From an uncultured bacterium (GTDB taxonomy: Bacteria > Patescibacteriota > Saccharimonadia > UBA4664 > SCTI01): 64,000 nt of DNA. The number at the start of each line of letters is the position of its first letter. Position 1 is the first letter of the stretch. Below the pieces are notes generated by a model. It made no database searches. It was not told where the DNA came from and saw only the letters and a list, made by a program, of their open reading frames with translations. Location of the stretch: contig CAVRJJ010000001.1 of the NCBI GenBank assembly GCA_963721685.1, forward strand, positions 68,555 to 132,554, in the 5' to 3' direction. Of the stretch, positions 10,132 through 61,732 are shown one piece after another. A program made the position numbers and the translations under genes.

Positions 10132-10218
10132 GCGGGCGTGGTGGAATGGTAGACACGCCAGCTTGAGGGGCTGGTGGCCGCTTAGGCCGTGGAGGTTCAA
10201 GTCCTCTCGTCCGCACCA
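10132..10218 (+). tRNA. tRNA-Leu (anticodon GAG)
   Basis: Manual fold: acceptor GCGGGCG/CGTCCGC (one G-U), anticodon stem CCAGC/GCTGG, loop TTGAGGG, long variable arm, T-loop GGTTCAAGTCC, encoded CCA. Confidence 0.8.
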
Positions 10219-10228
10219 ATAACAATTA

Positions 10229-10305
10229 GGGCGATTAGCTCAGCTGGTTAGAGCACCTCGTTTACACCGAGGGGGTCGCGGGTTCGAATCCCTCATCGCC
10301 CACCA
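10229..10305 (+). tRNA. tRNA-Val (anticodon TAC)
   Basis: GGGCGATTAGCTCAGCTGGTTAGAGC..., anticodon stem CCTCG/CGAGG, loop TTTACAC, T-loop GGTTCGAATCC, encoded CCA. Confidence 0.85.
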
Positions 10306-10313
10306 TCTTACCT

Positions 10314-10589
10314 ATGAAATTAACAGAAAAAATCATCAATGAACGATTGGTGGAAATTCCAGGCTGGAAATTTTCCGATGATCGCCTGTACCGTGAATTT
10401 TCATTTAAGGATTTTGTTATCGCATTTACATTCATGATAAAAGTTGCGGAAATTGCCGAACAACGCAACCATCACCCTGATTGGACGAACATTTACAATA
10501 AAGTGACAATTCGGCTTAACACTCATGCCTTCGGAGGGGTCACGGATAAAGATTTTCAGTTAGCTAAAGAAATTAACACCTTGATTTAA
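10314..10589 (+). CDS. Pterin-4a-carbinolamine dehydratase (PCD/DCoH)
   Basis: EIPGWKF...DFVIAFTFMIKVAEIAEQRNHHPDWTNIYNKVTIRLNTH is the PCD signature ([EDKH]-x(3)-H(2)-P...). Confidence 0.8.
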   Translation: MKLTEKIINERLVEIPGWKFSDDRLYREFSFKDFVIAFTFMIKVAEIAEQRNHHPDWTNIYNKVTIRLNTHAFGGVTDKDFQLAKEINTLI

Positions 10590-10639
10590 TTGAAAAGCGA
10601 CACTATTTTCGCTATTATCTCTAGGTCGCGTTAGTACTC

Positions 10640-10715
10640 GGCGAGATAGCTCAGTTGGTAGAGCAGTGGCTTGAAGAGCCTCGTGTCCTCGGTTCGAGTC
10701 CGAGTCTCGCCACCA
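10640..10715 (+). tRNA. tRNA-Phe (anticodon GAA)
   Basis: GGCGAGATAGCTCAGTTGGTAGAGC, anticodon loop TTGAAGA (one U-U mismatch in the stem), T-loop GGTTCGAGTCC, encoded CCA. Confidence 0.8.
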
Positions 10716-10726
10716 AATATACACAT

Positions 10727-10802
10727 GCGGGTGTAGCTCAGCTGATAGAGCGCTTCCTTGCCAAGGAAGAGGTCCAGGGTTTGAGTCCCTGTACCCGCAC
10801 CA
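10727..10802 (+). tRNA. tRNA-Gly (anticodon GCC)
   Basis: GCGGGTGTAGCTCAGCTGATAGAGC, anticodon stem CTTCC/GGAAG, loop TTGCCAA, T-loop GGTTTGAGTCC, encoded CCA. Confidence 0.8.
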
Positions 10803-10957
10803 AAACGAATTTATAGATACTGCGCATCTTAATGGTGTGCTTTATTTTTTACGCTTATCTGTTAACGGTTTTAGTCTCGATTTCAACATTACTAACAAGC
10901 ATATATTTAAACTGGAAACTGTTGTAAGATGTCTTTTTTGTTATCATTATTCTATGC

Positions 10958-11466
10958 CTCAAACAAAAGATTTAATCGTTAACCATATATTTAATGCCCC
11001 AATCGAAAAAGTCTGGCAAGTCTGGACAGCAGAAAGATTCGTACAACGGTGGTGGGGAGTAGATGGCTTTACGAATATTTTGGCAAAAATGGATGTGCGT
11101 GAAAGCGGCATTTCGCATGTAGGAATGCGCGCCTCTAAAGAATACGGTGGATTGGATTATTACAATGTCTTTGAATATACACAAGTTGTTCCGCACAAGC
11201 TCATTAAATTCATAAGTAATTTTGCGGACGAGCAAGGAAATATAATTCCCCCCACACAAGCAGGCTTACCTGCAGAGACAGCTATGAATAAAAAACAGCA
11301 AGTTGAATTCGAAGCATTAGATGATACAAAAACCAAGGTCACTATTACAGAGTTTGGGTGGCTCGCAGACGGTATAATGCTTGAACGATCGCGGCGTGGA
11401 CTTGAGCAAACCTTATTAAACATTGATAAAGTATTAGAGGATGTAACGTCATGGACAAAGCAATAA
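10958..11466 (+). CDS. SRPBCC-fold protein (AHSA1 / polyketide-cyclase-like); upstream extension to 10837 unlikely
   Basis: VNHIFNAPIEKVWQVWTAERFVQRWWG is a typical SRPBCC/Aha1-like N-terminus. Low-GC gene. Confidence 0.55.
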
Positions 11467-12240
11467 ATGAATAAGACTAATTCTCAAGACGCAACAACTA
11501 TTGCCTTTGATAAAAAAGGCCAAGGACCGCTATTGATTTTGGTACTTGGAGCCTTGAACAGGCGTAGCCAAGGAAAAAAACTTACCGAGCTACTTTCTGA
11601 CCAATTCACTGTAGTGAGTTATGACCGGCGCGGTCGAGGTGACAGCACTGATACGCTGCCCTACACAATCAATAAAGAAGTTGAAGATATTGAAACATTA
11701 ATCAATGAATTAGGCGGGGAGGCGTACTTGTACGGACACTCATCAGGCTGCGTACTTGCACTCATGGTAGCAAAAGAACTAGGCGGCAAAGTTAAAGGCT
11801 TAGTACTGTATGAACTCCCGTATAACGCTGATCCAGCCGCTAAGACTGCTTCAGAAGTTTACAGAAAAGAACTTAAACGGCTCCTCGATGAAGATAATCG
11901 TGACGACGCGGTTGCCTTATTTGTAAAATCGGTGGGAGTAAGTGATAAGCAAATTGCAGCCATGGAACGTTTACCTATGTGGAAAGGTTTGACTGCCATG
12001 GCTCATACACTTGCTTATGACACTATCGAGCTTATGGAACAGTACCCAAAACTAGATACTAAAACCATAGATACAAGATCATTAGTCTTATATGGGGCTA
12101 ACAGCCCTGACTTCATGGGCGAGACAGCAAAGAAACTTTCAGAGACCATGCCTAATGCTCAGCTCCGTTCTCTTGACGGACAGTCTCACGATGTTAAGGC
12201 TGATGTTATCGCTCCGGTGTTGGCTAAATTTCTTCTTTAA
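11467..12240 (+). CDS. Alpha/beta-fold hydrolase
   Basis: GHSSG nucleophile elbow (YLYGHSSGCVLAL) with His near the C-terminus (GQSHDV). Starts one codon after the upstream TAA. Confidence 0.7.
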   Translation: MNKTNSQDATTIAFDKKGQGPLLILVLGALNRRSQGKKLTELLSDQFTVVSYDRRGRGDSTDTLPYTINKEVEDIETLINELGGEAYLYGHSSGCVLALMVAKELGGKVKGLVLYELPYNADPAAKTASEVYRKELKRLLDEDNRDDAVALFVKSVGVSDKQIAAMERLPMWKGLTAMAHTLAYDTIELMEQYPKLDTKTIDTRSLVLYGANSPDFMGETAKKLSETMPNAQLRSLDGQSHDVKADVIAPVLAKFLL

Positions 12241-12340
12241 AATTCATAGCGGAATACAGCCTAACTCAAGTAGTAGTAATACTTTTTGTATCTGTTAATA
12301 TGGTTATAACTTCAGCAACCGTGCTGCACCATTCGCAACT

Positions 12341-12368
12341 TTGAGCCCATTTAGGGCTCTTTTTTATC
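12341..12368 (+). terminator. Rho-independent terminator after the alpha/beta hydrolase
   Basis: GAGCCC-ATTTA-GGGCTC hairpin followed by TTTTTTA. Confidence 0.55.
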
Positions 12369-12525
12369 TGTTAATTCTGGGTTTTTAACACCTCTTATTC
12401 CTAGCAGAAGGAGTTAAGACGAAAAGTTTAGAAAGAAGGCTGCTTATTAGAGAAGATGATGGAAATAAGAATGCGTTTTAACCTAATTACCACAATGCCA
12501 TATTCAAACTGTTATATTCAAAACC

Positions 12526-12747
12526 ATGATTAAACTATTAAAAAAGAAATCGTTAATAATTGTTATTTCTCTTTTTATAGTATGCGGAAGACTTATTGCA
12601 TATTATGCAAATAACAAAAATGTTCCACTTATCAAGAAATACCCAAAAACAAAATTTAGTAGTGGATACGAGCAAAACGCTTTTATCTACAGCTGTTCCA
12701 AAGAAATAGAGTGTATATTACACTGGTGTAACAAATCACGAATTTAA
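12526..12747 (+). CDS. Hypothetical small membrane protein (73 aa)
   Basis: AT-rich ORF with one N-terminal TM helix and no motif. Coding status is uncertain. Confidence 0.3.
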   Translation: MIKLLKKKSLIIVISLFIVCGRLIAYYANNKNVPLIKKYPKTKFSSGYEQNAFIYSCSKEIECILHWCNKSRI

Positions 12748-12766
12748 GGGTGGCGGACCAGAGTAT

Positions 12767-13159
12767 TTGCCAGTTAGCCAAGAGGAAGCTAAAAAATACT
12801 GCAGAAGCGAAGGAGTCATTGAGTATCGTGCAGTATTTGATATCCTTAAAAGAGAAGACGTTAGTAGTATCATTGCTAAATATGACACGACGCAAGCTTG
12901 GGTCAGGGCTCTTGGCCATAAATATATACACGCCAAGGAATACCTAAAGCGTATATTGCCTGCATATAGCGATATGAAGATAGACTGCATTATCGTGGTG
13001 CACTCGCCAGAAAGTACTAGATTCTTCATCGAGGATGGTGAAAAACACAAAAGCCATCATGACCATCATTACCGCGAAGTTCCAGCTCAAGAATTTCTGA
13101 CATCACTCAATAATGCACCAGACACAGACGTAACTAGCTTTTGGCTAGGCTTGCATTAA
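12767..13159 (+). CDS. Hypothetical protein (130 aa) with a His-rich stretch HKSHHDHHY
   Basis: ORF in the low-GC accessory segment. No recognisable family. Confidence 0.4.
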   Translation: MPVSQEEAKKYCRSEGVIEYRAVFDILKREDVSSIIAKYDTTQAWVRALGHKYIHAKEYLKRILPAYSDMKIDCIIVVHSPESTRFFIEDGEKHKSHHDHHYREVPAQEFLTSLNNAPDTDVTSFWLGLH

Positions 13160-13317
13160 GCCACGTCCAGCAAATCTCTAAGAAGTAATGTTTTACTTTC
13201 GTAGCTAATAGCGCACCATTGAAATCACCAAGATTTACATCTGTTAAGTACCGACAAAATTGGTGTTTTTAACTAAACCCAAACAGAACTCAAACGCACC
13301 CTTTTGTTATAGTTAGT

Positions 13318-13735
13318 AATTTAGAAATAGATTAAATATAACGAGTAGTCCGACGCTCGCTACGACAGTCGGAATTGCGATAAATGAACTTAAATACCCT
13401 GCAAAGCCCTGCGACAAAGCTGCGGCTGAGGCAATGCCACCAGCAACCATAGCAAGACCAATTAGTACATTTAGCCACCGCTTGCCGAAGGCATTGTGCT
13501 AATACACAGAAACGCTGGCACTTACTGGATAGGGCCCAGCCAGCTCCCTGTATGAAAAGGCTGTGAACGCAGCAGTAATCGTTGCGATTAAGAAAGCCAG
13601 TGTGATACTGGTTCCAGCAAATCCAGCAACTTTTCCTACCAGAACATCAATACCCGCCCCGAGTATATTACCCAGACCATATAAGGTAACGAGCGGAAGA
13701 CCGAGCGACCGTTTTAACTTTACGCTACTGCTCAT
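13318..13735 (-). pseudogene. APC-family amino-acid permease, N-terminal fragment interrupted by an in-frame TAG
   Basis: Minus-strand translation gives ...LVTLYGLGNILGAGI...AGPYPVSASVSVY*HNAFGKRWLNVLIGLAMVAGG...FNLFLNY*. This is a single frame with an internal TAG at 13499-13501, and only about 140 of the roughly 450 aa expected remain. Confidence 0.55.
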
Positions 13736-13889
13736 GCTTTTTATTCTAACAGTTCACAGGCTTATATTATGGGCTACAGACCTTTAAACCAACATGCTTG
13801 AGATGGTTACTTGTTTTGTTTAAGTGCGACAGTTGCCACACAAAATTGACATACGTATGGTATGGTGGTACAATATACAATACTGTTTA

Positions 13890-14162
13890 GGAGATGTAAT
13901 GTTTGAGGTTCTAAAAAACTCGCTTAATAGCTGGAATGTACAAAAGAGCGAACGACAAAAGCTACAGCATGCTTATTTAGCTTTGACTGTATTGGTAGTA
14001 TTGCTTGCAGGGATTATAAGCCTATTTGACGGTGAGCTGGGCCATAACATAGTGCTTGTGGCGCTAATTGCTATTGGAGCTTACTTTGTAAATTCAATTG
14101 TGTGGAATCTGTTGCAGGCTTCATTGCTTGATAAGCTATCAACTAAACCCAAAAGAAAATAA
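13890..14162 (+). CDS. Hypothetical small 2-TM membrane protein
   Basis: MFEVLKNSLNSWNV...ALTVLVVLLAGIISLF...VLVALIAIGAYFV. Followed by a hairpin at 14177-14204. Confidence 0.4.
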   Translation, partial: GDVMFEVLKNSLNSWNVQKSERQKLQHAYLALTVLVVLLAGIISLFDGELGHNIVLVALIAIGAYFVNSIVWNLLQASLLDKLSTKPKRK

Positions 14163-14378
14163 GAATATTTAGCTAATTAGGAACATGGGAGTTCCTAATT
14201 TATTCGGTAGATTTCTGGTATTCTCTAAGAAATAGCGTTTTACTTTCGTAGCTTAACGCGCACCGAATGGGAATTATCGGACGCTTCTGTGTCCTTTTTT
14301 TATTGTTGTTAATCTGTGGAAGAGTATTGAATGTTAAAATCAGATAGGAACTAACTTAAATGAAAGCGAGTATATAAA

Positions 14379-14759
14379 ATGGCAAAATATGTTGATGGTT
14401 TTGTACTGGTAGTTCCTAAAGGAAAAGAAGCTGAATACCAGAAAATGGCAGAAGAAGGGCGTGATTCATGGATGAAGCACGGTGCGCTTCAATACTTTGA
14501 ATGCAGAGGTGATGATCTGAAGCAGCAGGAAATGGGTGATCATAAATCACGTGCTTATAAAGAAATGGCTGGTGCGGGTGACGATGAAAACGTCTGGTTC
14601 TCATTTATTGTTTTTGAATCTAAAGAACATCGCGATGAAGTAAACAAGAAAGTTATTGCTGAGATGGATGAAACATATAGCGATCAGACTGACTTTGAAA
14701 TGCCGAACGATATGAAGAAAATGGCGTACGGTGGCTTTGCGGTAGCAGTTGAGGGTTAA
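14379..14759 (+). CDS. DUF1428-family protein
   Basis: MAKYVDGFVLVVPKGKEAEYQKMAEEG...WMKHGALQYFEC matches the DUF1428 N-terminal pattern. Confidence 0.55.
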   Translation: MAKYVDGFVLVVPKGKEAEYQKMAEEGRDSWMKHGALQYFECRGDDLKQQEMGDHKSRAYKEMAGAGDDENVWFSFIVFESKEHRDEVNKKVIAEMDETYSDQTDFEMPNDMKKMAYGGFAVAVEG

Positions 14760-14869
14760 GATCAAAAATATGGAGAAGGGATTTAGAAATGTCTTATATA
14801 AAAGCTAAAAGCCTATAAAATTAGCAGATATGAAATTAATAAAATCTAATCTAAAAAGAATGGATAACG

Positions 14870-18183: not shown

Positions 18184-19974
18184 CTACTTCTTAGGGTCGT
18201 GGTAGCGGGTAATGTCGGCGTGATTGGTTGGGTTCGGTGCCGGGGAAGGGGGCGGTACCGAAGGATGCGCGGGTGTTGGAGGCATTATGTTATCCTCCGG
18301 TGATTCAACGTGGTTCAACCGGTCACGGGCACTTTGCAGGGGGTGTTCTTCCAGCGGGGCGGTTTCATAGTGCGGCGCAGGCGCGACCGTGGTGGTACCG
18401 GGTACCACTCCTGGTGTGGGTTTGGGAATGTAAGGGTTTCCGGCACTGGCGAGCGGGCCATTAGTATACATGGTTTCACTTTGCCGGCGGCGCATCATAA
18501 CGATGAATCCGCCCACGATGGCCGCTACTGCCGCGGCCAAAAGGATCCAAAGCCAGGCGCTGCCGCCACTTTTCACCGCTGCAAGGACCAAGGGCTTTTC
18601 AATTTCAAGGGTGCGGATATTTTGCTTTTCATCTACTGAAGAGTTCAGTAAGGAAGCCTTTTTACCGGTTACACTGACTATCTTCATTTTAGCGGCAGCT
18701 TGTTTGCCGGAGGCTTGGAAAACCACCCTGATTGGATTTTTATATTCAGTAATTTCATCGCCGGACTTATTTTTACAGGTGAGCGAGTTGGGTTTAATCA
18801 AACTGTTCTTGGGCGGAATAACGCTGCTTTCTGACACCGCGCAGGACAACTCTTCGCTAAATGTCCCGGCGCTAATCTCGTAGCACACGCTGTTATTGTC
18901 CGAGCATATAGTAGTAGCTTCCTCGGGAACAACATTGGCTTCAAAGTCGTTTGTTGCCAGTTCTGTAGTGGCGTATGGGCTGGCATTGCCGGCCGCATCG
19001 ATGGCCGCCACACGATAGTAGTATTTGGTGGCAAATTCAGTCGAGATGTCATCAAAATTAGCGGTTAAGCTTTCTTGAAGCACTACCCATTCGTCACCTC
19101 CAAGCGAGCGCTCAATTTTGTAGGTTGTCGCGTCACTAACCGTGTCCCAGGTAAGGGATACCACGCCGCTATCTTGGGTTGCTGCAAGGTTCTGTGGAGT
19201 TCCCGGCGGTGTTGTATCTGGTGCGGGCGCTGGTGTTGTTGGCTTAGTGCTGACAAACGGAATAGTGATCCCTCCCAGATTCGGTCTTGGCGTAGGACTA
19301 GGGGTTGGAGCGGGTGAAGGGCCGGGCTGAGGACTGGGGCTCGGGCCAGGAGGAGGCGGCGGCCCAGGTGGAGGAGGCGGCGGCCCAGGTGGAGGAGGCG
19401 GCGGCCCAGGTGGAGGAGGTGGAGGAGGTGGTGGTGGTGGTGGAGGTGGAGGAGGAGGAGGCGTCGGATCATCATACGTCATGTAATAGTAAAAAGGGCC
19501 GTTTGCGCCGCCATTGGTTAGTGTAAACGAATTGCTATTTACCTTATAAGGGGAGCCTGGGTGCTCATAATATCCGCCTTTAATCGCGTAGTAAATATAG
19601 TATTGCGCGGAGGAGCCGGGTGGGTTGGTCCCCGAAACCGGACACGTATAAAATACGGATGCCCCGTCACCATTGGTAATAGAATAGGCTCCATTACCGC
19701 TTGAAGATGACCGGCAATACCATGAAGCGTCTGGACTACCAAGCGAGGAACGTATTCTAATATCAACATTTGGAATTCCGCCACCGTGAACTGGGTCTAC
19801 AACATATAAAATCACATAATTGTTCCAGGCTGTAGGAGCGTTGTTGGCAAACGAATTGTAAACAACATATGTTCCCGTAACTGCCGATACTGCGGCAATA
19901 AGAAAAATCATCGCGGCATTCAAATGATGCAGCGACATGAGCTTGACTGACTTTTTGCTCCGCTTCATATGCAA
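18184..19974 (-). CDS. Type-I membrane cell-surface protein with a polyproline stalk and a fibronectin type III domain
   Basis: N-terminal signal/TM helix; a Tyr/Gly-rich N-terminal domain; a run of 17 Pro followed by GPPPPPP repeats and a PS/PT-rich linker; an FN3-like segment (LTWDTVSDATTYKIERS...YYYRVAAIDAAGNAS); a C-terminal TM (WLWILLAAAVAAIVGGFIVMM) followed by an RRR stop-transfer; a Pro-rich cytoplasmic tail. Confidence 0.7.
   Translation of the reverse strand: MHMKRSKKSVKLMSLHHLNAAMIFLIAAVSAVTGTYVVYNSFANNAPTAWNNYVILYVVDPVHGGGIPNVDIRIRSSLGSPDASWYCRSSSSGNGAYSITNGDGASVFYTCPVSGTNPPGSSAQYYIYYAIKGGYYEHPGSPYKVNSNSFTLTNGGANGPFYYYMTYDDPTPPPPPPPPPPPPPPPPPPGPPPPPPGPPPPPPGPPPPPGPSPSPQPGPSPAPTPSPTPRPNLGGITIPFVSTKPTTPAPAPDTTPPGTPQNLAATQDSGVVSLTWDTVSDATTYKIERSLGGDEWVVLQESLTANFDDISTEFATKYYYRVAAIDAAGNASPYATTELATNDFEANVVPEEATTICSDNNSVCYEISAGTFSEELSCAVSESSVIPPKNSLIKPNSLTCKNKSGDEITEYKNPIRVVFQASGKQAAAKMKIVSVTGKKASLLNSSVDEKQNIRTLEIEKPLVLAAVKSGGSAWLWILLAAAVAAIVGGFIVMMRRRQSETMYTNGPLASAGNPYIPKPTPGVVPGTTTVAPAPHYETAPLEEHPLQSARDRLNHVESPEDNIMPPTPAHPSVPPPSPAPNPTNHADITRYHDPKK
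19352..19418. repeat. 21-bp tandem repeat (about 3 copies of GGCGGCCCAGGTGGAGGAGGC) inside the polyproline coding region
   Basis: Direct reading of 19352-19418. On the minus strand it encodes (PPPPPGP)n. Confidence 0.8.
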
Positions 19975-31006: not shown

Positions 31007-31030
31007 GCAGCCCGCCAGATGGCGGGCTGC
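31007..31030 (+). terminator. Perfect 10-bp hairpin GCAGCCCGCC-AGAT-GGCGGGCTGC at the 3' end of the upstream operon and the edge of GC-rich islet A
   Basis: Read directly. Only a weak T tract follows (TAGGTTTC), so it is a possible bidirectional terminator. Confidence 0.4.
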
Positions 31031-31287
31031 TAGGTTTCACGGACTATGTCACTCTCCCAAGCCCACACCGGCCATGCCGTGTTAATGTAGGGGTGAGGTG
31101 GCGGGTTGAGCGGCAGTAGCTTGTACCGCCACTCCAGGCGCTGATCGCCGTGCTCGTCGAGGGGACGCTTTTGTTCGCGCCGTTCAACAACAACACAGGT
31201 GAGTACAAGCTTCGGATCGGCGGGCGACCGAAAGGTCACTCGCGTGGTGCCGTCGGCGCTGTATATCGGTGGCGGGCGGCTGCCCAT
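31030..31287 (-). CDS. Hypothetical protein (85 aa) in GC-rich islet A, second gene of a minus-strand pair
   Basis: Strong SD AAGGAG 4 nt before the ATG (minus strand, 31287), 26 nt downstream of the previous stop. MGSRPPPIYSADGTTRVTFRSPADPKLVLTCVVVERREQ... The longer 173-aa ORF (to 31551) is the same frame but overlaps the other gene, so the SD-supported start is preferred. Confidence 0.45.
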   Translation of the reverse strand: MGSRPPPIYSADGTTRVTFRSPADPKLVLTCVVVERREQKRPLDEHGDQRLEWRYKLLPLNPPPHPYINTAWPVWAWESDIVRET

Positions 31288-31313
31288 AATGCTCCTTGTC
31301 TTGGAGGTGAATG

Positions 31314-31685
31314 CTACGAGATCATCACGGGCGATTCGCCTCGCTTGTGGTTGATTGCGTCGCGAATGGCTTCGAGTTCCTCGTGGTCGAGAACCGCGAA
31401 CGAAGCCCAACTGTCGGCTCCGACCTCGCGTCCGTTGATCAGGTAGCTCTGTCGACGAATCGGCATGCCCTGGTCGTCGTAGTCGACGGTTTCGATCCTC
31501 ACCGCGAACGTGGTCCGAGTACCGTTGGGACGGCGGTAAGGGACGCTGCACGAGTCAATTGCTGGCTTTGCAGCAGCGACGAGCCTCGTGATCAGATCCT
31601 TGGCCTCCACCATAGCGATGAGAGCTCGTGCTCGTCTGGAGGTTCTCCACTTCGATGCTGGCCTTTCTATGGTATTGCCCATCAT
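31314..31685 (-). CDS. Hypothetical protein (124 aa) encoded in GC-rich islet A
   Basis: Minus-strand ATGATG at 31685/31682 preceded by GAAAGTAGGACC (SD-like). The sequence MMGNTIERPASKWRTSRRARALIAMVEAKDL...LDHEELEAIRDAINHKRG matches no family I recognise. GC content is about 60% or more. Confidence 0.45.
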   Translation of the reverse strand: MMGNTIERPASKWRTSRRARALIAMVEAKDLITRLVAAAKPAIDSCSVPYRRPNGTRTTFAVRIETVDYDDQGMPIRRQSYLINGREVGADSWASFAVLDHEELEAIRDAINHKRGESPVMIS

Positions 31686-31822
31686 TGGTGGTCCTACTTT
31701 CGGGTTGTGTGTTAAGAAACCGTTGCTTATATATACCACAAATTGCTTAAAGTTTCAAGTGTTTCCATAATTACGCTAACGCTTGGGCGTGGTATACTAA
31801 GTGAATCGAAAAGGGGGCCTGT

Positions 31823-39674: not shown

Positions 39675-39792
39675 ATAATTGCAGGCGGGTCCGCCACCAC
39701 CCCGAGGGGCGGCGGCGGGAGGCCGTTCATACACGCATTACTGCCCGGACAGGCAATTACGGTCGCTCGGAAGCGGCATTAATTGCGTCCTT

Positions 39793-40095
39793 TTAACGCT
39801 GTTTGATGGGGACCACGGTGCCGGGCGGGCGCCGATCCCGCTCGTCTTCGAGGGTCGAGAACACCTTGGCCAAGGCCAGGAAGTTCCGTCCCTTTTTTGT
39901 GAGCGAAAGGACCAGCACGGAGGCGATGAGGATCATCAGCGTACCGAGGATCCAGACCGCTCCACTTGAGCTGCCTAGAAGAGCGACCCCCAGGACCGCC
40001 ATTGCCGCGCTCGCGACGGTGATGAGACGACGGCGTCGACGGCTTCTGGCACTCTGGATACGGCGCTGATGCAGTTCTGTGGCTGTAAGGGGCAT
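39793..40095 (-). CDS. Hypothetical small membrane protein (100 aa, Arg-rich N-terminus plus two TM helices) in GC-rich islet C
   Basis: The minus-strand ATG at 40095 is preceded by AAGGGA. MPLTATELHQRRIQSARSRRRRRLITVASAAMAVLGVALLG...ILGTLMILIASVLVLSL... About 65% GC. Confidence 0.45.
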   Translation of the reverse strand: MPLTATELHQRRIQSARSRRRRRLITVASAAMAVLGVALLGSSSGAVWILGTLMILIASVLVLSLTKKGRNFLALAKVFSTLEDERDRRPPGTVVPIKQR

Positions 40096-40357
40096 GTGTT
40101 CCCTTTGTTCGATGGACGCAGTGTGTGAATGGCGCGACTTGATGCAGCAAACTCAGAAACTGGGTAAACCTACTTCAAAGTCAGAAAGAACAATAGCATA
40201 AAACTTCATAAAAGTCAATAGATTGGCACTAGCGCTATTTACGGCAACGAAGAGTTGCAAATTCGCGGTTCATTTGCAATAATGCCTCCATAACGTCGGC
40301 CTGCTGGTCGACTTTTTTTGAACTACAACTTAATAACAACAGAATAGGAAAGATCAT

Positions 40358-56252: not shown

Positions 56253-56915
56253 TTAGGCTTTTTCAAATATACTGTCTTCGAGGGCAGTCACAGTTGCAAG
56301 AATATAATCAAGCTCTTCGACGGTAATTGTGGTAGGTGAGTTATGCCTTATGTCTAGCGCAATAGTTCTCGCTAATTCTCTTGCCCGAGCAACCTGATCG
56401 CTCAAATCTTGATCATTGTTTTCCGTGGGCGTAGAACCTTCTACAGAGTCAAATAAAACTTCCTTCATTCTTTCCACGCACAACCTCGCTACATCAAGAA
56501 GGTCTTGGGTAATGTTTTCAGGCGCTTTTTCAAGTGTTTCATCAATTTCTTTTAAAATGCCCGCGGCGGTTTCGCTGACCCATCCCGCTTTTCCATTTAT
56601 TTCACGAATTCTAACGCGTTCGGCCTGACGCGCGGCTTCAGCTTCTCTAACCTTAAGCTCATGCAGAGCAAGTTCTTCGGCAGTGAGCGGCTTGGTGTTC
56701 ATTAGGATCTTTTGGGCTGGGGTTGGTTCCTCACCTACTACGTGATGTCCGCCAATTGATCCGTTTGCAAGCGGAACACTAGGTTCATCGTCTGGGTGGG
56801 CATCAATGCCTGGATCAGCTCCCAGCTCATCTAACTCCTCGTTTGTAAGCAGTTCGGGTGGGTTCTTCCTTATTTCATGATCAGAAGGCCCGCCTCTTCC
56901 TCTTTCGATATCCAT
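56253..56915 (-). CDS. Hypothetical acidic protein (220 aa)
   Basis: Minus-strand ORF rich in Glu/Asp and predicted coiled coil. No recognisable family. Confidence 0.4.
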   Translation of the reverse strand: MDIERGRGGPSDHEIRKNPPELLTNEELDELGADPGIDAHPDDEPSVPLANGSIGGHHVVGEEPTPAQKILMNTKPLTAEELALHELKVREAEAARQAERVRIREINGKAGWVSETAAGILKEIDETLEKAPENITQDLLDVARLCVERMKEVLFDSVEGSTPTENNDQDLSDQVARARELARTIALDIRHNSPTTITVEELDYILATVTALEDSIFEKA

Positions 56916-56990
56916 AGAAATATCCTCATCTATAAATTTAATGCTAGCACAACCAATGCTATAATAACCATAAGCCTAATAAAAACCCTT

Positions 56991-57551
56991 ATGGATATTC
57001 AATACCCTAAACCAAAACCCCGCTCAAAGGTTGCAAAAATCAAATTCCTCAAGCGGTCAGCTGCCGGCAAAGCCAGTCATCACAAACGGCGAATTCGCGC
57101 GCACGCAAAGCGTAATTTGATACTCGCTGCGTTACTACTGGTAGTGGGGCTGGGACTTAGCTCAACCTATATTTTACGCTCGCTCGAGCTCATGGCGCCC
57201 GCCGGTAATGATCCGCACCTCCAAACCTACATCCGTGCAGCCCAAGCCGCTTCCTACCAGCAACGGGAAAGCTCAAAAGCGCCCGATCAAATTGGCGTGG
57301 CGTCGTGGTATGCATTAGGATTGCGCAGCCCGGACGCCTTAACCTGCGCCTCAACGAAATTTCCGCGCGGAACGTATCTGCATGTTAAAGACTTACGTAA
57401 TGGGAGGGAGGTGGTCTGTTTGGTTAACGACTACGGCCCCACACCCGGTACGAAGCGGGTTATTGACCTTTCGCGGGGCAGCTATAGTCACCTGGAAGGC
57501 CTGGGGTCGGGAACGATGCCGGTTGAGATACGGCGGGTGGAAAAGCCATAA
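56991..57551 (+). CDS. RlpA-like double-psi beta-barrel (DPBB) protein, membrane-anchored
   Basis: TM anchor then VASWYALGLRSPDALTCASTKFPRGTYLHVKDLRNGREVVCLVNDYGP (the RlpA/expansin DPBB signature). The start at 56991 avoids overlap with the minus-strand gene. Confidence 0.7.
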   Translation: MDIQYPKPKPRSKVAKIKFLKRSAAGKASHHKRRIRAHAKRNLILAALLLVVGLGLSSTYILRSLELMAPAGNDPHLQTYIRAAQAASYQQRESSKAPDQIGVASWYALGLRSPDALTCASTKFPRGTYLHVKDLRNGREVVCLVNDYGPTPGTKRVIDLSRGSYSHLEGLGSGTMPVEIRRVEKP

Positions 57552-57559
57552 CCGGTGTA

Positions 57560-57588
57560 TTGTAATTTACATATAAATATGTTATTAT
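57560..57588 (+). promoter_or_regulatory. Sigma-70-type promoter (TTGTAA-17 nt-TATTAT) immediately upstream of GC-rich islet D
   Basis: -35 at 57560-65 and -10 at 57583-88 in an AT-rich tract. The GC-rich ORF starts 64 nt downstream. Confidence 0.4.
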
Positions 57589-57651
57589 ATTGCAGTTCGA
57601 GGTGAACTTTTTCGCCTTGGGCTCAGTCCCACTCAACTACCGGGGGTACCT

Positions 57652-58083
57652 ATGGGAAAAGCATCGGCTCTTGACCAACGCGGATCCAACTGGGAGATCA
57701 CGAACGGAGGCCTCACGCTGGTCCTCAACGACTGCTTCGTGTTCACACGTAGCCCACGCCTTCGTGGGGTAGGCAACACCAAGGGCTCAGTTCTGAGCAG
57801 GCTCAACGCCCAGCTGCACGCGCTCATCGCGCGCGGCATGTGGGGGCAGGTTGACTTCATGCTCGGATCAAGCCAGCTGGTAGCCCAGTTGTGGATGCGC
57901 TGGGACCTCCAGTCGCGCCATCTGCAGGTAAGTGAAACCGTCCGTCTTCCGGGCCACCCGGTTCCGCTTGTCTGCGTGCGTTTCGAGCAGTTGGCCGAAC
58001 CGGGCTGTTTGCTCCTCGCTCCGGGAGTCGGGCAAGGTGATGAGCTCGCGTTCATCAACTCCCTGGGCTACCGCATCAGCTGA
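57652..58083 (+). CDS. Hypothetical protein (143 aa) in GC-rich islet D
   Basis: MGKASALDQRGSNWEITNGGLTLVLNDCFVF...AQLWMRWDLQSRHLQ...GDELAFINSLGYRIS. About 60% or more GC with CTG/GGC/CGC-biased codons. No family recognised. Confidence 0.45.
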   Translation: MGKASALDQRGSNWEITNGGLTLVLNDCFVFTRSPRLRGVGNTKGSVLSRLNAQLHALIARGMWGQVDFMLGSSQLVAQLWMRWDLQSRHLQVSETVRLPGHPVPLVCVRFEQLAEPGCLLLAPGVGQGDELAFINSLGYRIS

Positions 58084-58142
58084 GCTTCGGCTCGAGTGGG
58101 ACAACGGGGGAGGCAAGCGCCTCTCCCGTCCACTGCACTTAT

Positions 58143-59495
58143 CTAATAAGCACTAACGGTTTTTTCGTAGAGTGTGGGGAGTAAGTCGTGAGGGTCGTAT
58201 TTCTTCTTAAGCTTGCGGTATACCGTGCCGTTATAGATACGCGTAAATTCTGCTTCGGTTATGAAGGTGGAAGAGTAAAGCATTTTTATGCCGTCATGGG
58301 CAAAAGTAAAAGTATCCATAAGTTTGGTGTGGTAATACTCCGGCTTATCATGCCGCTTACGTACGAAACTATAACTTCCCAAATTAAGGTAAGGTTGGTT
58401 CTTGGCTAAGGGATAGGATGTAGCTAGCCCAGGCGTTTTAACCGGTGCCGCCATCAGGGGCCGGCCCGCCAGATCCAGATTTTCAAGAGCATAGCTGAAA
58501 AGTGCTTCGGCGTGTTTCCAAGGTACCTCCCAGTCTTGAATTAACAGCTCCAGATCTTCATCTTGAGCGGAAATAAAAGGGAGCTTGGCGGCTAGCTTAG
58601 CTTGCAGGGCCGCGTAGCGCGCGTAAAAACCGGAGCTGCGCATGAGTTTCGGGGCAAGTCTACGGAACAGGTTGTAGGATCCCGTGTCCGGCATTGCCCA
58701 AAACCATTCCGGGTCATAACGAAACAAATAGTCTTTAACGTTAAGCGAAAAAACACCAGGCCGACTTATTTCATGGTAGAAGATTGTTGGGCCATAGATA
58801 CTTTTAAGGTTTTGAGGTTGGTCGGTGTGGCGTTCGGTTGTAAGGTAGAGCTCATCCTCGGAATATACCAAGCTTTCCAGATAATCATTTTTGCTACCGC
58901 GCAACTCATGTTCCATGGCTGCCACAAGCTCAGGCACATTCTTGTAGCGCTTGGTGGTAAGCGTTACGTAGGGCTTAACTTGGTGCAGTTTAATTTTGGC
59001 ACGCAAAATATAGCCGAGCGTGCCATACGAGTTAGGGAGGGCGTGAAACAGGTCCGCGTATTTCCCTCGGGGCCCGCACACGACCACTTCACCATGCGGC
59101 AGGAGCACTTCAGCTTCAACTACATTGTCATGTACAAACCCGTGGCGAAAGCTATTGGTTTCAATGCCAATACCGACTGTGGCACCCCCTACGGTAATAT
59201 TTTTAAGTTCTGGCGTAATAATTGGTGTTAAACCATGGGGCAATACAAAATTAACGACATCTTCAAAGGTGGTTAACCCCTGAACGTCCAGCGTTTGGTT
59301 TATAAGGTCGATGAAGAGCGGCTGATTAAAATGCCTAAGGTCAATTAAACGGCTCGCGGTTTCCTTCCGTCCGTCATAGCGGAATAGGTTGGATATAGTT
59401 TTCTTTTTTACGCGTAAAGGCTGCTTATTGCCTCGCAGCTCCGCCTTTAGAAAAACAACTTGCTTGGCGTGACGAGGTCGTCGGTCAATTGGCAT
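58143..59495 (-). CDS. FAD-binding oxidoreductase (DIMINUTO/DWF1-like FAD-linked oxidase)
   Basis: FAD-binding PCMH-like N-terminus (NITVGGATVGIGIETNSFRHG), about 450 aa. Confidence 0.6.
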   Translation of the reverse strand: MPIDRRPRHAKQVVFLKAELRGNKQPLRVKKKTISNLFRYDGRKETASRLIDLRHFNQPLFIDLINQTLDVQGLTTFEDVVNFVLPHGLTPIITPELKNITVGGATVGIGIETNSFRHGFVHDNVVEAEVLLPHGEVVVCGPRGKYADLFHALPNSYGTLGYILRAKIKLHQVKPYVTLTTKRYKNVPELVAAMEHELRGSKNDYLESLVYSEDELYLTTERHTDQPQNLKSIYGPTIFYHEISRPGVFSLNVKDYLFRYDPEWFWAMPDTGSYNLFRRLAPKLMRSSGFYARYAALQAKLAAKLPFISAQDEDLELLIQDWEVPWKHAEALFSYALENLDLAGRPLMAAPVKTPGLATSYPLAKNQPYLNLGSYSFVRKRHDKPEYYHTKLMDTFTFAHDGIKMLYSSTFITEAEFTRIYNGTVYRKLKKKYDPHDLLPTLYEKTVSAY

Positions 59496-59500
59496 AGTGG

Positions 59501-60370
59501 TTACTGCCTTCCTAGCAGCCCATTCCAGTCGGCCTCAAACTTAAGAAGCCCCTGGTCGGTGAGGTCGTGCTGGATATTATAAGATTGCCAGTCTTGGTTA
59601 AGCGGAACCTCGGCATAGCTAAGGGGGGTCAGGCTGTCTGTATTATAGCTGTAGTCGCCGGGCGGGACCGGCATGCCATCGGCCGCCCACTCTAAGAGCA
59701 AGTTGGCGGGGGCGGTAATAATATCGCAGTTTCGCGAGAGGCACCATTGCAAGTGCTCTTTGGAACGGATGCTGGCTGCTAAGACCATAACATGGCCGTC
59801 ACCTTCGGAATACATGCGTTGGATATTAGCGATAGTGTCAATGCCGCGCTCTCCACGGTCATCAAAACGTCCGACAAAAGGTGAAACAAAAACATTGCCG
59901 CGCTGAGCATTCTTGGTAGCTACGTAGACGGCGGCGGCCTGAAGTTGGCTAAAGCATAGCGTCATATTTACGCGTCCGCCTTCAGCAGTAAACGTTTCAG
60001 CCGCTGCCAGGCCGGCCGCGACGGTCGGAAATTTTATGTGGGCATTGCCAATCCAAGCGTTCATTTCATGGGCCTGAGCTAGCATCTCTTCGGTAGTAGT
60101 GTGGCTGTCGGCGGTAACTTCAATTGAAATGGATCCGTCTGGAATAAGCTTTGAAGCGGTTTCAACAATACCGCGGTAGAAGTCACGAATTTCTTCAACC
60201 TCAAAAAGCTGGCCACGAGACAAGCGCTCTAGCACGGAGGGATTTTTGGCGATTAGCGAGGGGTTGGTGGTTTGGCCGTCAAGCCAGCCCAGCGCCTCCA
60301 CTACGGCTTTTGTTTCGGCCGCGTCGCCGCCGTCGAGAAATATTTTGGTTTGAAGGTTTTTCGGCTTCAT
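59501..60370 (-). CDS. tal: Transaldolase
   Basis: KIFLDGGDAAE...GQTTNPSLIAKN are transaldolase motifs (Lys Schiff base further in). The start is taken at MKPKN; the longer upstream extension is not protein-like. Confidence 0.75.
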   Translation of the reverse strand: MKPKNLQTKIFLDGGDAAETKAVVEALGWLDGQTTNPSLIAKNPSVLERLSRGQLFEVEEIRDFYRGIVETASKLIPDGSISIEVTADSHTTTEEMLAQAHEMNAWIGNAHIKFPTVAAGLAAAETFTAEGGRVNMTLCFSQLQAAAVYVATKNAQRGNVFVSPFVGRFDDRGERGIDTIANIQRMYSEGDGHVMVLAASIRSKEHLQWCLSRNCDIITAPANLLLEWAADGMPVPPGDYSYNTDSLTPLSYAEVPLNQDWQSYNIQHDLTDQGLLKFEADWNGLLGRQ

Positions 60371-60451
60371 ATGTTTACAAGTATACACACCGGGCATGGA
60401 CGTTTTGGCGGTACTGCTTTTTTTGATCACCTCTGTTACAATACCGTGGAT

Positions 60452-61732
60452 ATGAAAGCCGAAGTCACAAAACGTACCGATACACATGTCACTTTTTCGA
60501 TTCTTGCTGATGCTGATGAGTTGCAGCATGCCAAAGAGCATTCCTACGACAAATATCGCCCTCAGGTAAAAGTTGCCGGTTTTCGCCCGGGCAAAGCTCC
60601 CGACAGCATCGTGGCCCGGGAAATCGGTGATGCCACCATTCAGCACGAAGCGCTTGAGCACGCCATCGGGCATAGTTATTCCGCCGCGATAACCCAGGAA
60701 AAAGTAACCGTTATCGCGCCACCGGATGTCCAGGTTAAAAAATTTGTACCGTACACCGAACTCGAGTACGAGGCAACCGTTGAAATAGTGCCGCCGGTTA
60801 CCTTGCCGGATTACAAAAAAATAAAAAAACCAGCCAAAAAGGTGACGGTAGATGAAAAGAAGGTTGATGAGATGGTTGAAGACCTTCGCCTGCGGGCGGC
60901 AAAGCGGATTCCCGTCGCGCGCGCGGCCGGGATGGGTGATGAGGTGAAGTTTGATTATGACGGGAAGCGTGACGGTAAAGCGGTTGCGGGGGCGGCCGGG
61001 AAGAATTACACCCTAAAGCTGGGGTCGGGCAATTTTATCCCGGGATTTGAAGAAGAGATGGTTGGCCTGAAGTCTGGAGACGAAAAAACCTTTACCATAA
61101 CGTTCCCCAAGCAATACCATGAAAAAAGCTTGGCTGGCCAGCCGGTTGTTTTTACCGTTAAAATGCATGAGGTGACAGAACTAGTTTTGCCTGATGCTGA
61201 TAATAAGTTCGCGGTTGAAATGGGACCGTTTAAGACGCTCGAAGACCTGCGCGTCGATCTTAAAAACCAGCTTACATTGGAAGCTGAAGAGGCTGCTAAG
61301 CGTGAGTATGAGAACGAACTGCTTGATGAATTGATTGTTAAAAGCAAGATGACGGTGCCGGAGCGCCTGGTTACCCAGCAGCTTGAGCGGATGAGAGCGG
61401 AAATCAGCCAACGGCTAGCTGCCAATGGCTTAACCCTGGAGCATTATCTGTCCGCGCAAAAGCAAACGCCGGAAGAGTTGGAAAAACAAATGCGCCCTGA
61501 AGCTGAAAAACGGGTTAAGTTAGCCCTGGTCTTAAGTGAAATTGCCCGCCAGGAAAAAATGAGTGTTGGTTCAGACGAAATTGACCGTGAAATTGAAAGT
61601 TTGCGGCTTCAGTACACCGACCCGAAAATGCAGGCGGAGCTCGATGGCGACCAAATTAAGGAAGATGTTTATAATCATTTGATGGCCGGCAAGGTGATTC
61701 GTAGCTTAACGGTTTCTGCCCAGGCCAAATAA
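60452..61732 (+). CDS. tig: Trigger factor
   Basis: N-terminal ribosome-binding domain (AGFRPGKAP), FKBP-like PPIase (GDEVKFDYDGK...FIPGFEEEMVGLKSGDEKTF) and a C-terminal arm domain. Confidence 0.9.
   Translation: MKAEVTKRTDTHVTFSILADADELQHAKEHSYDKYRPQVKVAGFRPGKAPDSIVAREIGDATIQHEALEHAIGHSYSAAITQEKVTVIAPPDVQVKKFVPYTELEYEATVEIVPPVTLPDYKKIKKPAKKVTVDEKKVDEMVEDLRLRAAKRIPVARAAGMGDEVKFDYDGKRDGKAVAGAAGKNYTLKLGSGNFIPGFEEEMVGLKSGDEKTFTITFPKQYHEKSLAGQPVVFTVKMHEVTELVLPDADNKFAVEMGPFKTLEDLRVDLKNQLTLEAEEAAKREYENELLDELIVKSKMTVPERLVTQQLERMRAEISQRLAANGLTLEHYLSAQKQTPEELEKQMRPEAEKRVKLALVLSEIARQEKMSVGSDEIDREIESLRLQYTDPKMQAELDGDQIKEDVYNHLMAGKVIRSLTVSAQAK

Follow-up and report, generated by a model that had tools for sequence, protein, structure and literature searches.

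The locus described here lies in a 64-kb stretch of DNA, referred to as the window, at the junction of an rlpA-like gene and a convergently transcribed FAD oxidase. According to the Pfam annotation of the window, both flanking genes are housekeeping genes. The segment that separates their stop codons holds an ORF with an ATG start and a GC content of 61.8%, together with a promoter, a leader and a 3' hairpin (Table 1). A preliminary description, made from the letters alone, had given the size of this ORF, its GC richness and its position between the rlpA-like gene and a minus-strand oxidase, and all these statements hold. The host is represented by a segment of about 50% GC and, as judged from the oxidase, the nearest public loci belong to Saccharibacteria/Saccharimonadia MAGs. 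Among these, L002 carries a complete orthologue of the ORF, L004 carries a fragment, and L008 carries none. An antisense ORF of 141 aa is also open in the window copy, and the antisense frames are interrupted in L002.

Table 1. Features of the inserted module and of its flanking genes, in window positions.
Feature	Position	Strand	Basis or remark
rlpA-like gene (DPBB_1), left flank, outside module	56877..57551	+	Pfam, E = 1.5e-8
Whole module	57552..58142	+	591 nt, from rlpA-like stop codon to oxidase stop codon
Predicted sigma-70-type promoter, extended -10	57560..57588	+	Consensus scan
5'-proximal stem-loop CGAGGUGAA-CUUU-UUCGCCUUG	57598..57619	+	MFE fold
5'-UTR motif GTCCCACTC	57626..57634	+	Complementary to 58094-58102
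Shine-Dalgarno, weak, GGGGG	57642..57646	+	Read off the sequence; 5 nt 5' of the ATG
Coding sequence, 143 aa (P0001)	57652..58083	+	Founding member of a three-sequence orphan family
Mini-hairpin GAGC-UUCG-GCUC	58082..58093	+	Overlaps stop codon; weak evidence
3' hairpin between convergent stop codons	58094..58134	+	Nearly invariant in window, L002 and L004
FAD_binding_4 oxidase, right flank, outside module	58143..59495	-	Pfam; convergent with the ORF

When 1.84 billion representative proteins were searched exhaustively with a HMMER profile, P0002 and P0003 were the only relatives of the ORF protein to be returned. Both come from other Saccharimonadia MAGs, where their genes converge with the oxidase orthologue; P0003 is a 103-aa C-terminal fragment from L004. 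Two long repeat proteins also scored in this search and were discounted (hhalign probability 17.6%). Word-indexed searches of 5.8 billion clusters recovered the queries themselves and nothing else. Likewise, there were no significant matches to the protein in Pfam, NCBIfam, PADLOC, PHROGs or the PDB sequences, no credible neighbour among PDB and BFVD folds when the predicted model was compared with Foldseek, and no tblastn matches in phage and plasmid records. These empty profile, structure and fold comparisons agree with the earlier statement that the protein has no recognisable family, and the ORF encodes a true orphan that founds a new protein family. Nowhere else in the 64-kb window is any stretch of the ORF repeated, and on this ground a paralogue, a duplication and a DGR target were rejected.

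The orthologues are related at E = 5e-8 in pairwise comparison. Their protein identity is 24-46%, versus 70-75% for the neighbouring genes, and the window allele is 24-28% identical to the other alleles; the rate of evolution of the protein is about three times that of its neighbours. The family comprises three sequences, one of them a fragment, and dS is saturated, so selection on the protein is not quantified. As read from the sequences, the protein has neither a signal peptide nor a TM segment, as expected for the soluble product that had been proposed, and its net charge varies between orthologues. AlphaFold2, supplied with the three-sequence alignment, gave a low-confidence alpha/beta model (pLDDT 58 and 46).

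Comparison with related genomes shows that the module is an insert. In L008, whose oxidase is 71% identical, the stop codons of the rlpA-like gene and the oxidase overlap (CCTTAATAAGCC) and nothing lies between them. Relative to that state, all of 57552-58142 is therefore inserted DNA, including the AT-rich promoter, which had been assigned to native-looking DNA and is missing from the empty site. L002 has a syntenic 600-nt GC-rich module, with synteny on both sides (oxidase 70% and rlpA-like gene 75% identical). In more distant relatives (oxidase at most 64% identical), the oxidase is followed by a same-strand gene, often a CMAS-type methyltransferase. The empty site in L008 and the different downstream gene in the outgroups thus substantiate the claim of an insert. 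L008 also keeps the rlpA-like gene without the ORF, and the ORF protein has no export signal. For these two reasons, a role as immunity protein for the upstream rlpA-like hydrolase was rejected.

In a neighbour-joining tree of the oxidase, the carriers (the window, the P0007 contig, L004 and L002) form a clade, with L008 as its sister. The internal branch is short, so one gain followed by one precise loss is possible. Oxidase orthologues of the carriers are 70-85% identical. The closest carrier, the P0007 contig (ERR12037361; oxidase 83% identical), probably has an orthologue of the ORF as well; on both this contig and another with a window-identical oxidase, a gene fragment of 86 aa converges on the oxidase at a distance of exactly 59 nt. 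The junctions show short repeats (TAA / TAATAA in the window, TAATAA / TAGTAG in L002, and TTAATAA at the empty site), which may be a target-site duplication or may only reflect selection, as both genes need stop codons there. Within the 64-kb window, we found no TIRs between the insert ends, no extra copies of the insert or similarity to it, and no transposase, integrase or recombinase nearby.

Several observations bear on the age of the insertion. At four-fold sites, identity among the ORF orthologues is 0.29-0.42 versus 0.33-0.35 by chance, and in the oxidase it is 0.30-0.47 versus 0.26 expected, which is nearly saturated. Saturation in the ORF and near-saturation in the oxidase show that the insertion is ancient, and the module seems to have been inherited vertically. 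The recent foreign islet implied by the preliminary description is therefore not supported, since at least two further lineages of species rank (L002 and L004) have orthologues of the same composition at this locus. Homologues of this kind are confined to the nearest clade and are not universal among relatives. What the module shares with genomic islets is an atypical composition (GC3 +3 sd) and a patchy distribution (absent from L008 and the outgroups). Neither recency nor an identifiable donor could be recognized, given the saturated sites and the lack of any other homologue among the 1.84 billion proteins searched.

The atypical composition resides at third codon positions. GC1/2/3 is 0.65/0.45/0.74 in the window ORF, 0.63/0.42/0.77 in L002 and 0.72/0.37/0.78 in L004. 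The value of 0.74 places GC3 of the window copy at the top of the 61 long ORFs of the window (mean 0.51, sd 0.077; +3 sd), and all three orthologues show a GC3 of 0.74-0.78 versus 0.50-0.62 in the flanking oxidase of the same genomes. Raw GC is less distinctive. The window averages 49.7% (sd 5.5% over 240-nt windows) and the segment 57597-58188 peaks at 65%, but about ten further segments also exceed 60%, which makes the ORF segment only a moderate outlier. Compositional statistics thus confirm that the ORF is atypical in GC3, and moderately so in raw GC. As for the idea that this is the fourth small high-GC insert in the window, one other small GC3-rich orphan ORF exists (39793-40095), and at least one further GC peak merely stems from a poly-proline stretch of an ordinary gene.

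The GC3 excess is persistent and has been kept up across the orthologues. Because four-fold sites are saturated between carriers, the high GC3 has been maintained and is not a fresh donor signature. A donor signature would be expected to ameliorate, so something holds this ORF GC3-rich. Codon adaptation is an unlikely cause, as trigger factor, ClpP and other housekeeping genes of the window have a GC3 of about 0.5. A local hotspot of GC-biased gene conversion in this CPR genome is a possible, though unlikely, source of the excess. In any case, it has outlived complete synonymous turnover, contrary to the usual expectation of amelioration. The locus offers a clean, datable case, for which an empty site, the limits of the insertion and several orthologues are known, and it illustrates that a compositional islet need not mean recent transfer.

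The 5' end of the module carries the predicted promoter. It consists of a -35 box TTGTAA (57560-65), a 17-nt spacer containing an extended -10 TG (57580-81), and a -10 box TATTAT (57583-88), which reads TG-T-TATTAT. At the same place, the orthologous locus L002 has TTGAAT-17-TGGTATTAT (TG-G-TATTAT). Hence, the near-consensus promoter TTGTAA-17-TATTAT that had been described is present and its architecture is conserved in L002. The region contains one promoter-type site, versus 1.6 expected in shuffled sequences, so the promoter match alone is not significant. The predicted promoter is presumably active, in which case transcription would start at about 57594-57596 and produce a leader of about 57 nt. 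The 5'-proximal stem-loop of this leader has a counterpart in L002 (CAAGGUGA..UCUCCUUG), and the motif GTTCrAGGTGA within the hairpin is conserved. An SD-like AGGTGA (57600-05), also conserved, lies inside the stem-loop, with no start codon conserved downstream of it. This stem-loop might act as a 5' stabiliser of the mRNA. Downstream of it, GTCCCAC is kept in L002 amid an otherwise diverged leader. In L002, translation signals comprise GGAGGT located 6 nt ahead of a GTG start.

At the other end, a hairpin takes up the 59 nt that separate the convergent stop codons, and this spacer is about 90% conserved. The hairpin core, CGGGGGAGGC-AAGC-GCCTCTCCCG (58105-58128), forms a 10-bp stem (58105-14 / 58119-28) with eight G-C pairs and a 4-nt loop, extended by AGUGG (58095-99) pairing with CCACU (58130-34). 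Across the three loci, the only changes are G-C/G-U flips. The bulged GC hairpin noticed after the ORF is thus real and conserved in all three loci. No U-tract follows the stem, as the plus strand continues with TCCACTGCACTTAT and the minus strand with TTGTCCCACTCGAG, and the terminator scan did not call it. Lacking a U-tract, the hairpin is not a canonical intrinsic terminator. The small hairpin that precedes it has a counterpart in L004 with one compensatory pair (GAAC-CUCG-GUUC) and is lacking in L002. We did not find the 3' motif elsewhere in scans of metagenome DNA and viral contigs: two metagenome scans with the hairpin motif gave nothing or high-GC chance matches (L005-L007), and the viral scan gave chance matches only, without the hairpin.

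The two ends of the predicted transcript may also interact. The leader sequence GTCCCAC(TC) is complementary to (GA)GTGGGAC of the 3' UTR in both full-length orthologues, and the resulting 9-nt helix (57626-34 / 58094-102) is present in the MFE structures of the window and L002, with a pair probability of about 1.0 in both. Of the nine nucleotides, seven are kept in L002. Moreover, the conserved non-coding parts of the module (the -10 region, the leader motif, GTCCCAC and the 3' spacer) are far better kept than the protein. The plus strand folds better than dinucleotide shuffles, with z = -4.8 in the window, -2.75 in L002 and -3.0 in L004. The minus strand of the window folds nearly as well (z = -4.05), as expected from composition and hairpin effects. 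When compared with synonymous-codon shuffles, the coding sequences of the three orthologues give z = -1.9, -1.5 and -3.2, versus -0.26 +/- 0.79 (minimum -1.65) for 16 host genes, which is suggestive of a coding sequence more structured than its codons demand. Rfam 15 scans of the whole window brought only tRNAs to the gathering threshold, and a permissive scan (E <= 10) of 57500-58200 returned noise, the best match having E = 0.098 on the wrong strand.

These data raise the possibility that the module is centred on its RNA. Under such a dual-function scheme, the mRNA would form a closed loop in which 5' GUCCCAC pairs with 3' GUGGGAC, the high GC3 would serve structure, and the protein would be made too; such a transcript could be self-stabilising or RNase-resistant, could control translation, or could act as an insulator between the convergent genes. 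The conserved complementarity, the UTRs that exceed the coding sequence in conservation, the excess folding in all three orthologues and a GC3 held despite saturated synonymous sites all fit this scheme. However, the two motifs do not vary and hence show no covariation, and both ends are known in two sequences only. Long-range predictions in RNAs of 550 nt are unreliable, and the synonymous-shuffle z scores are modest, with two of them overlapping the control range. In addition, the helix spares the Shine-Dalgarno and the start codon, and its 3' segment, GAGTGGGAC (58094-102), has alternative partners, since it can extend the local hairpin instead of pairing with the 5' UTR. For these reasons, we consider an RNA-centred module unlikely. 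If RNA-level selection nonetheless lay behind the GC3 excess and the complementary UTRs, the locus would lend itself well to studying how selection on an mRNA shapes a gene in a reduced genome.

A foreign origin of the ORF deserves to be weighed in a broader form, either as a recent islet from a high-GC donor or as a cassette repeatedly replaced from a GC-rich pool via its conserved flanks. Such an origin would account for a GC3 that stands 3 sd above host genes, for the presence/absence polymorphism and for a very divergent interior between conserved flanks. It would also explain why the window allele is more divergent than the star-like oxidase distances predict. On the other hand, all carriers are monophyletic and hold the ORF at one locus, and the similarities among the ORFs are congruent with host relationships, within the limits of three taxa. 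Furthermore, the searches of representative proteins, phages, plasmids, and viral or metagenome contigs provided no homologue that could represent a donor or a pool, and the ORF occurs once in the window, in surroundings free of repeats, TIRs, integrase and transposase. Transfer or replacement from a GC-rich source is thus quite improbable.

The coding status of the ORF is supported by several lines of evidence. The open frame has a similar length in the window (143 aa) and in L002 (147 aa), where it also occupies the same place in the same frame, and that of the L004 fragment runs uninterrupted to the shared stop position. A Shine-Dalgarno sequence and a start codon are present in both full-length copies. 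Three-base GC periodicity is found in the same frame in three of three orthologues, as the proposed coding potential predicts. Nucleotide identity by codon position (1/2/3) is 0.57/0.70/0.54 between L002 and L004 and 0.38/0.50/0.45 between the window and L002, so the second position is the best conserved among the orthologues compared. In the comparison of L002 with L004, the ORF frame scores 103 bits versus 45-75 bits for the other five frames. When the window copy is compared with L002 or L004, the ORF frame does no better than the other frames once the conserved 3' UTR is included. This test being indecisive, the coding constraint on the window copy is carried by codon periodicity, conservation of the second codon position and the intact ORF. 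Towards the C-terminus, the codons of the window copy can be aligned in frame with those of L002, and the replacements there are conservative. The other five frames of the insert have no Pfam match, which rules out a remnant of a known gene in another frame. Taken as sequence evidence, these data identify 57652-58083 as a real protein-coding gene. That the frame is spurious, a by-product of GC richness in a structured ncRNA of about 500 nt, is very improbable: the fold z scores, the transcript ends far better conserved than the interior, the absence of protein homologues beyond the family and the open antisense ORF could suggest it, but a structured ncRNA as sole explanation was rejected on account of the codon periodicity, the codon-position and frame tests and the empty Rfam scans, and is further opposed by the interrupted antisense frames in L002, the similar folding of the minus strand and interior helices that differ between the MFE structures of the window and L002.

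Altogether, we favor, with a probability of about 0.75, that the module is a self-contained, monocistronic and lineage-restricted coding gene that was inserted once, has been vertically inherited, and encodes an accessory protein. The gene unit would comprise the extended -10 promoter, the leader of about 57 nt with its 5' stem-loop, the 143-codon ORF and the conserved GC hairpin. The 591-nt module would have entered once, at a tail-to-tail rlpA-like/FAD oxidase junction with initially overlapping stop codons. The recipient would have been the ancestor of a small Saccharimonadia subclade, within which the module would have descended vertically since. Its product would be a protein of about 16 kDa, probably cytoplasmic as judged from its sequence, with a predicted alpha/beta architecture; it may serve an accessory function and be subject to relaxed or diversifying selection. 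As for the hairpin, its most likely roles are to terminate or insulate the two converging transcripts and to protect the 3' end of the mRNA. Such roles would explain why no part of the module is better conserved than the hairpin, as antisense transcription would arise if a newly arrived promoter fired into the oxidase gene. The persistent GC3 of about 0.75 and the structured mRNA are left over when the module is read as a plain accessory-protein gene. Together with the conserved complementary UTRs, the GC3 excess is the only feature possibly worth further work.

Some parts of the module resemble known elements. Hairpins and bidirectional intrinsic terminators are well established between convergent genes. 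Similarly, the GC stem-loop of the module fills the whole spacer between convergent stop codons, and an insulating role is logical for a hairpin that arrived together with a promoter firing at its neighbour. Unlike bidirectional intrinsic terminators, it has no U-tract downstream or A-tract upstream on either strand, and its sequence conservation of about 90% is much above what a generic terminator needs. In Staphylococcus aureus, the icaR mRNA is regulated by pairing between its 5' and 3' UTRs, and the 3' UTR pairs with the Shine-Dalgarno region. The predicted mRNA of the module shows a comparable conserved complementarity of 7-9 nt between leader and 3' UTR of the same molecule. Unlike in icaR, the helix lies 7 nt upstream of the Shine-Dalgarno and shows no covariation. 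Regarding the 5' end, the STAB-SD of Bacillus thuringiensis cryIIIA is a 5' mRNA stabiliser with an SD-like sequence. The module likewise has a conserved AGGTGA about 10 nt or less from the predicted 5' end, with no conserved start codon after it, but here the SD-like sequence is predicted to be sequestered in a hairpin.

As a whole, the protein family is new, yet the object itself is of a familiar kind: a lineage-restricted hypothetical gene of the sort plentiful in CPR genomes. Like the taxonomically restricted orphans described in a survey of prokaryotic orphan genes (Genome Res 2024; PMC11293555), the ORF is short, monocistronic and confined to a narrow lineage, with signs of purifying selection on the protein and an empty orthologous region in a relative. 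In the same survey, GC and GC3 of orphans closely match those of conserved host genes, and phage-derived and de novo orphan candidates are lower in GC (PMC11293555). Unlike the surveyed orphans (PMC11293555), the ORF has a GC3 of 0.74-0.78 versus about 0.5 in its host, and this excess persists over saturated divergence. Finally, unlike species-specific orphans, the ORF is common to several species-level lineages.

The gene neighbourhood of the FAD oxidase that converges on the 143-aa orphan was compared between the window (58143-60673) and more distant relatives, namely loci L001, L003 and L009 and the P0011 contig, in which the oxidase is 64% identical or less. There, the next gene after the oxidase, and on its strand, encodes a CMAS-type (cyclopropane-fatty-acid-synthase-like) methyltransferase. 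Within the clade of the window, by contrast, this methyltransferase gene is not adjacent to the oxidase, and the rlpA-like gene abuts it instead. This gene order points to a local rearrangement older than the 591-nt insertion. Near the oxidase of the Saccharibacteria-like L009 contig, we also found two T4SS_pilin (PF18895) genes (170-1086), which bear no relation to the orphan.

On the left flank, the rlpA-like ORF as annotated (56877-57551) shares about 39 nt at its 5' end with the divergent 220-aa ORF. Similarity of the rlpA-like protein to its counterpart in L002, a relative carrying an orthologue of the orphan, begins only at residue 27; hence, the real start of this gene probably lies downstream of the annotated one. 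At the other end, the mini-hairpin at the orphan's stop codon has a counterpart in L004 (GAAC-CUCG-GUUC), the locus with a 103-aa C-terminal fragment of an orthologue, with one compensatory pair relative to the window. No equivalent was found in L002 when the window, L002 and L004 were compared.

Features of the window considered here, in window positions
Feature	Position	Strand	Remarks
596-aa protein gene	18184-19974	minus	TM at N-terminal and C-terminal ends, long poly-proline tract between
141-aa ORF	31314-31739	minus	one example of overlapping ORFs on both strands of the spacer upstream of dnaE
100-aa orphan ORF	39793-40095	minus	GC-rich spacer 39675-40357, between oligoendopeptidase-F-like gene and nusA
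220-aa acidic ORF	56253-56915	minus	no family; divergent to rlpA-like ORF
Mini-hairpin GAGC-UUCG-GCUC	58082-58093		overlaps stop codon of the 143-aa orphan ORF

The 100-aa ORF near nusA has GC1/2/3 values of 0.64/0.50/0.71 and two predicted TM segments, and no Pfam match above cut-off. This second small GC3-rich orphan and the 143-aa one may represent one phenomenon. The dnaE gene is also preceded by a GC-rich spacer (31030-31800, ~60% GC), which matches neither Pfam nor Rfam. The peak of GC and GC skew at 19.1-19.6 kb falls within the 596-aa protein gene and is due to the proline codons of its poly-proline tract (PPPPPP...GPPPPPPG) rather than to an insert.

An AT-rich block was observed at 10800-14800 (GC 0.32-0.45, GC3 0.33-0.39), immediately downstream of four clustered tRNA genes (10132-10802). 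Its products comprise AHSA1-like, alpha/beta-hydrolase and DUF1428 proteins, together with two family-less ORFs, and the block looks like an island adjoining tRNA genes.
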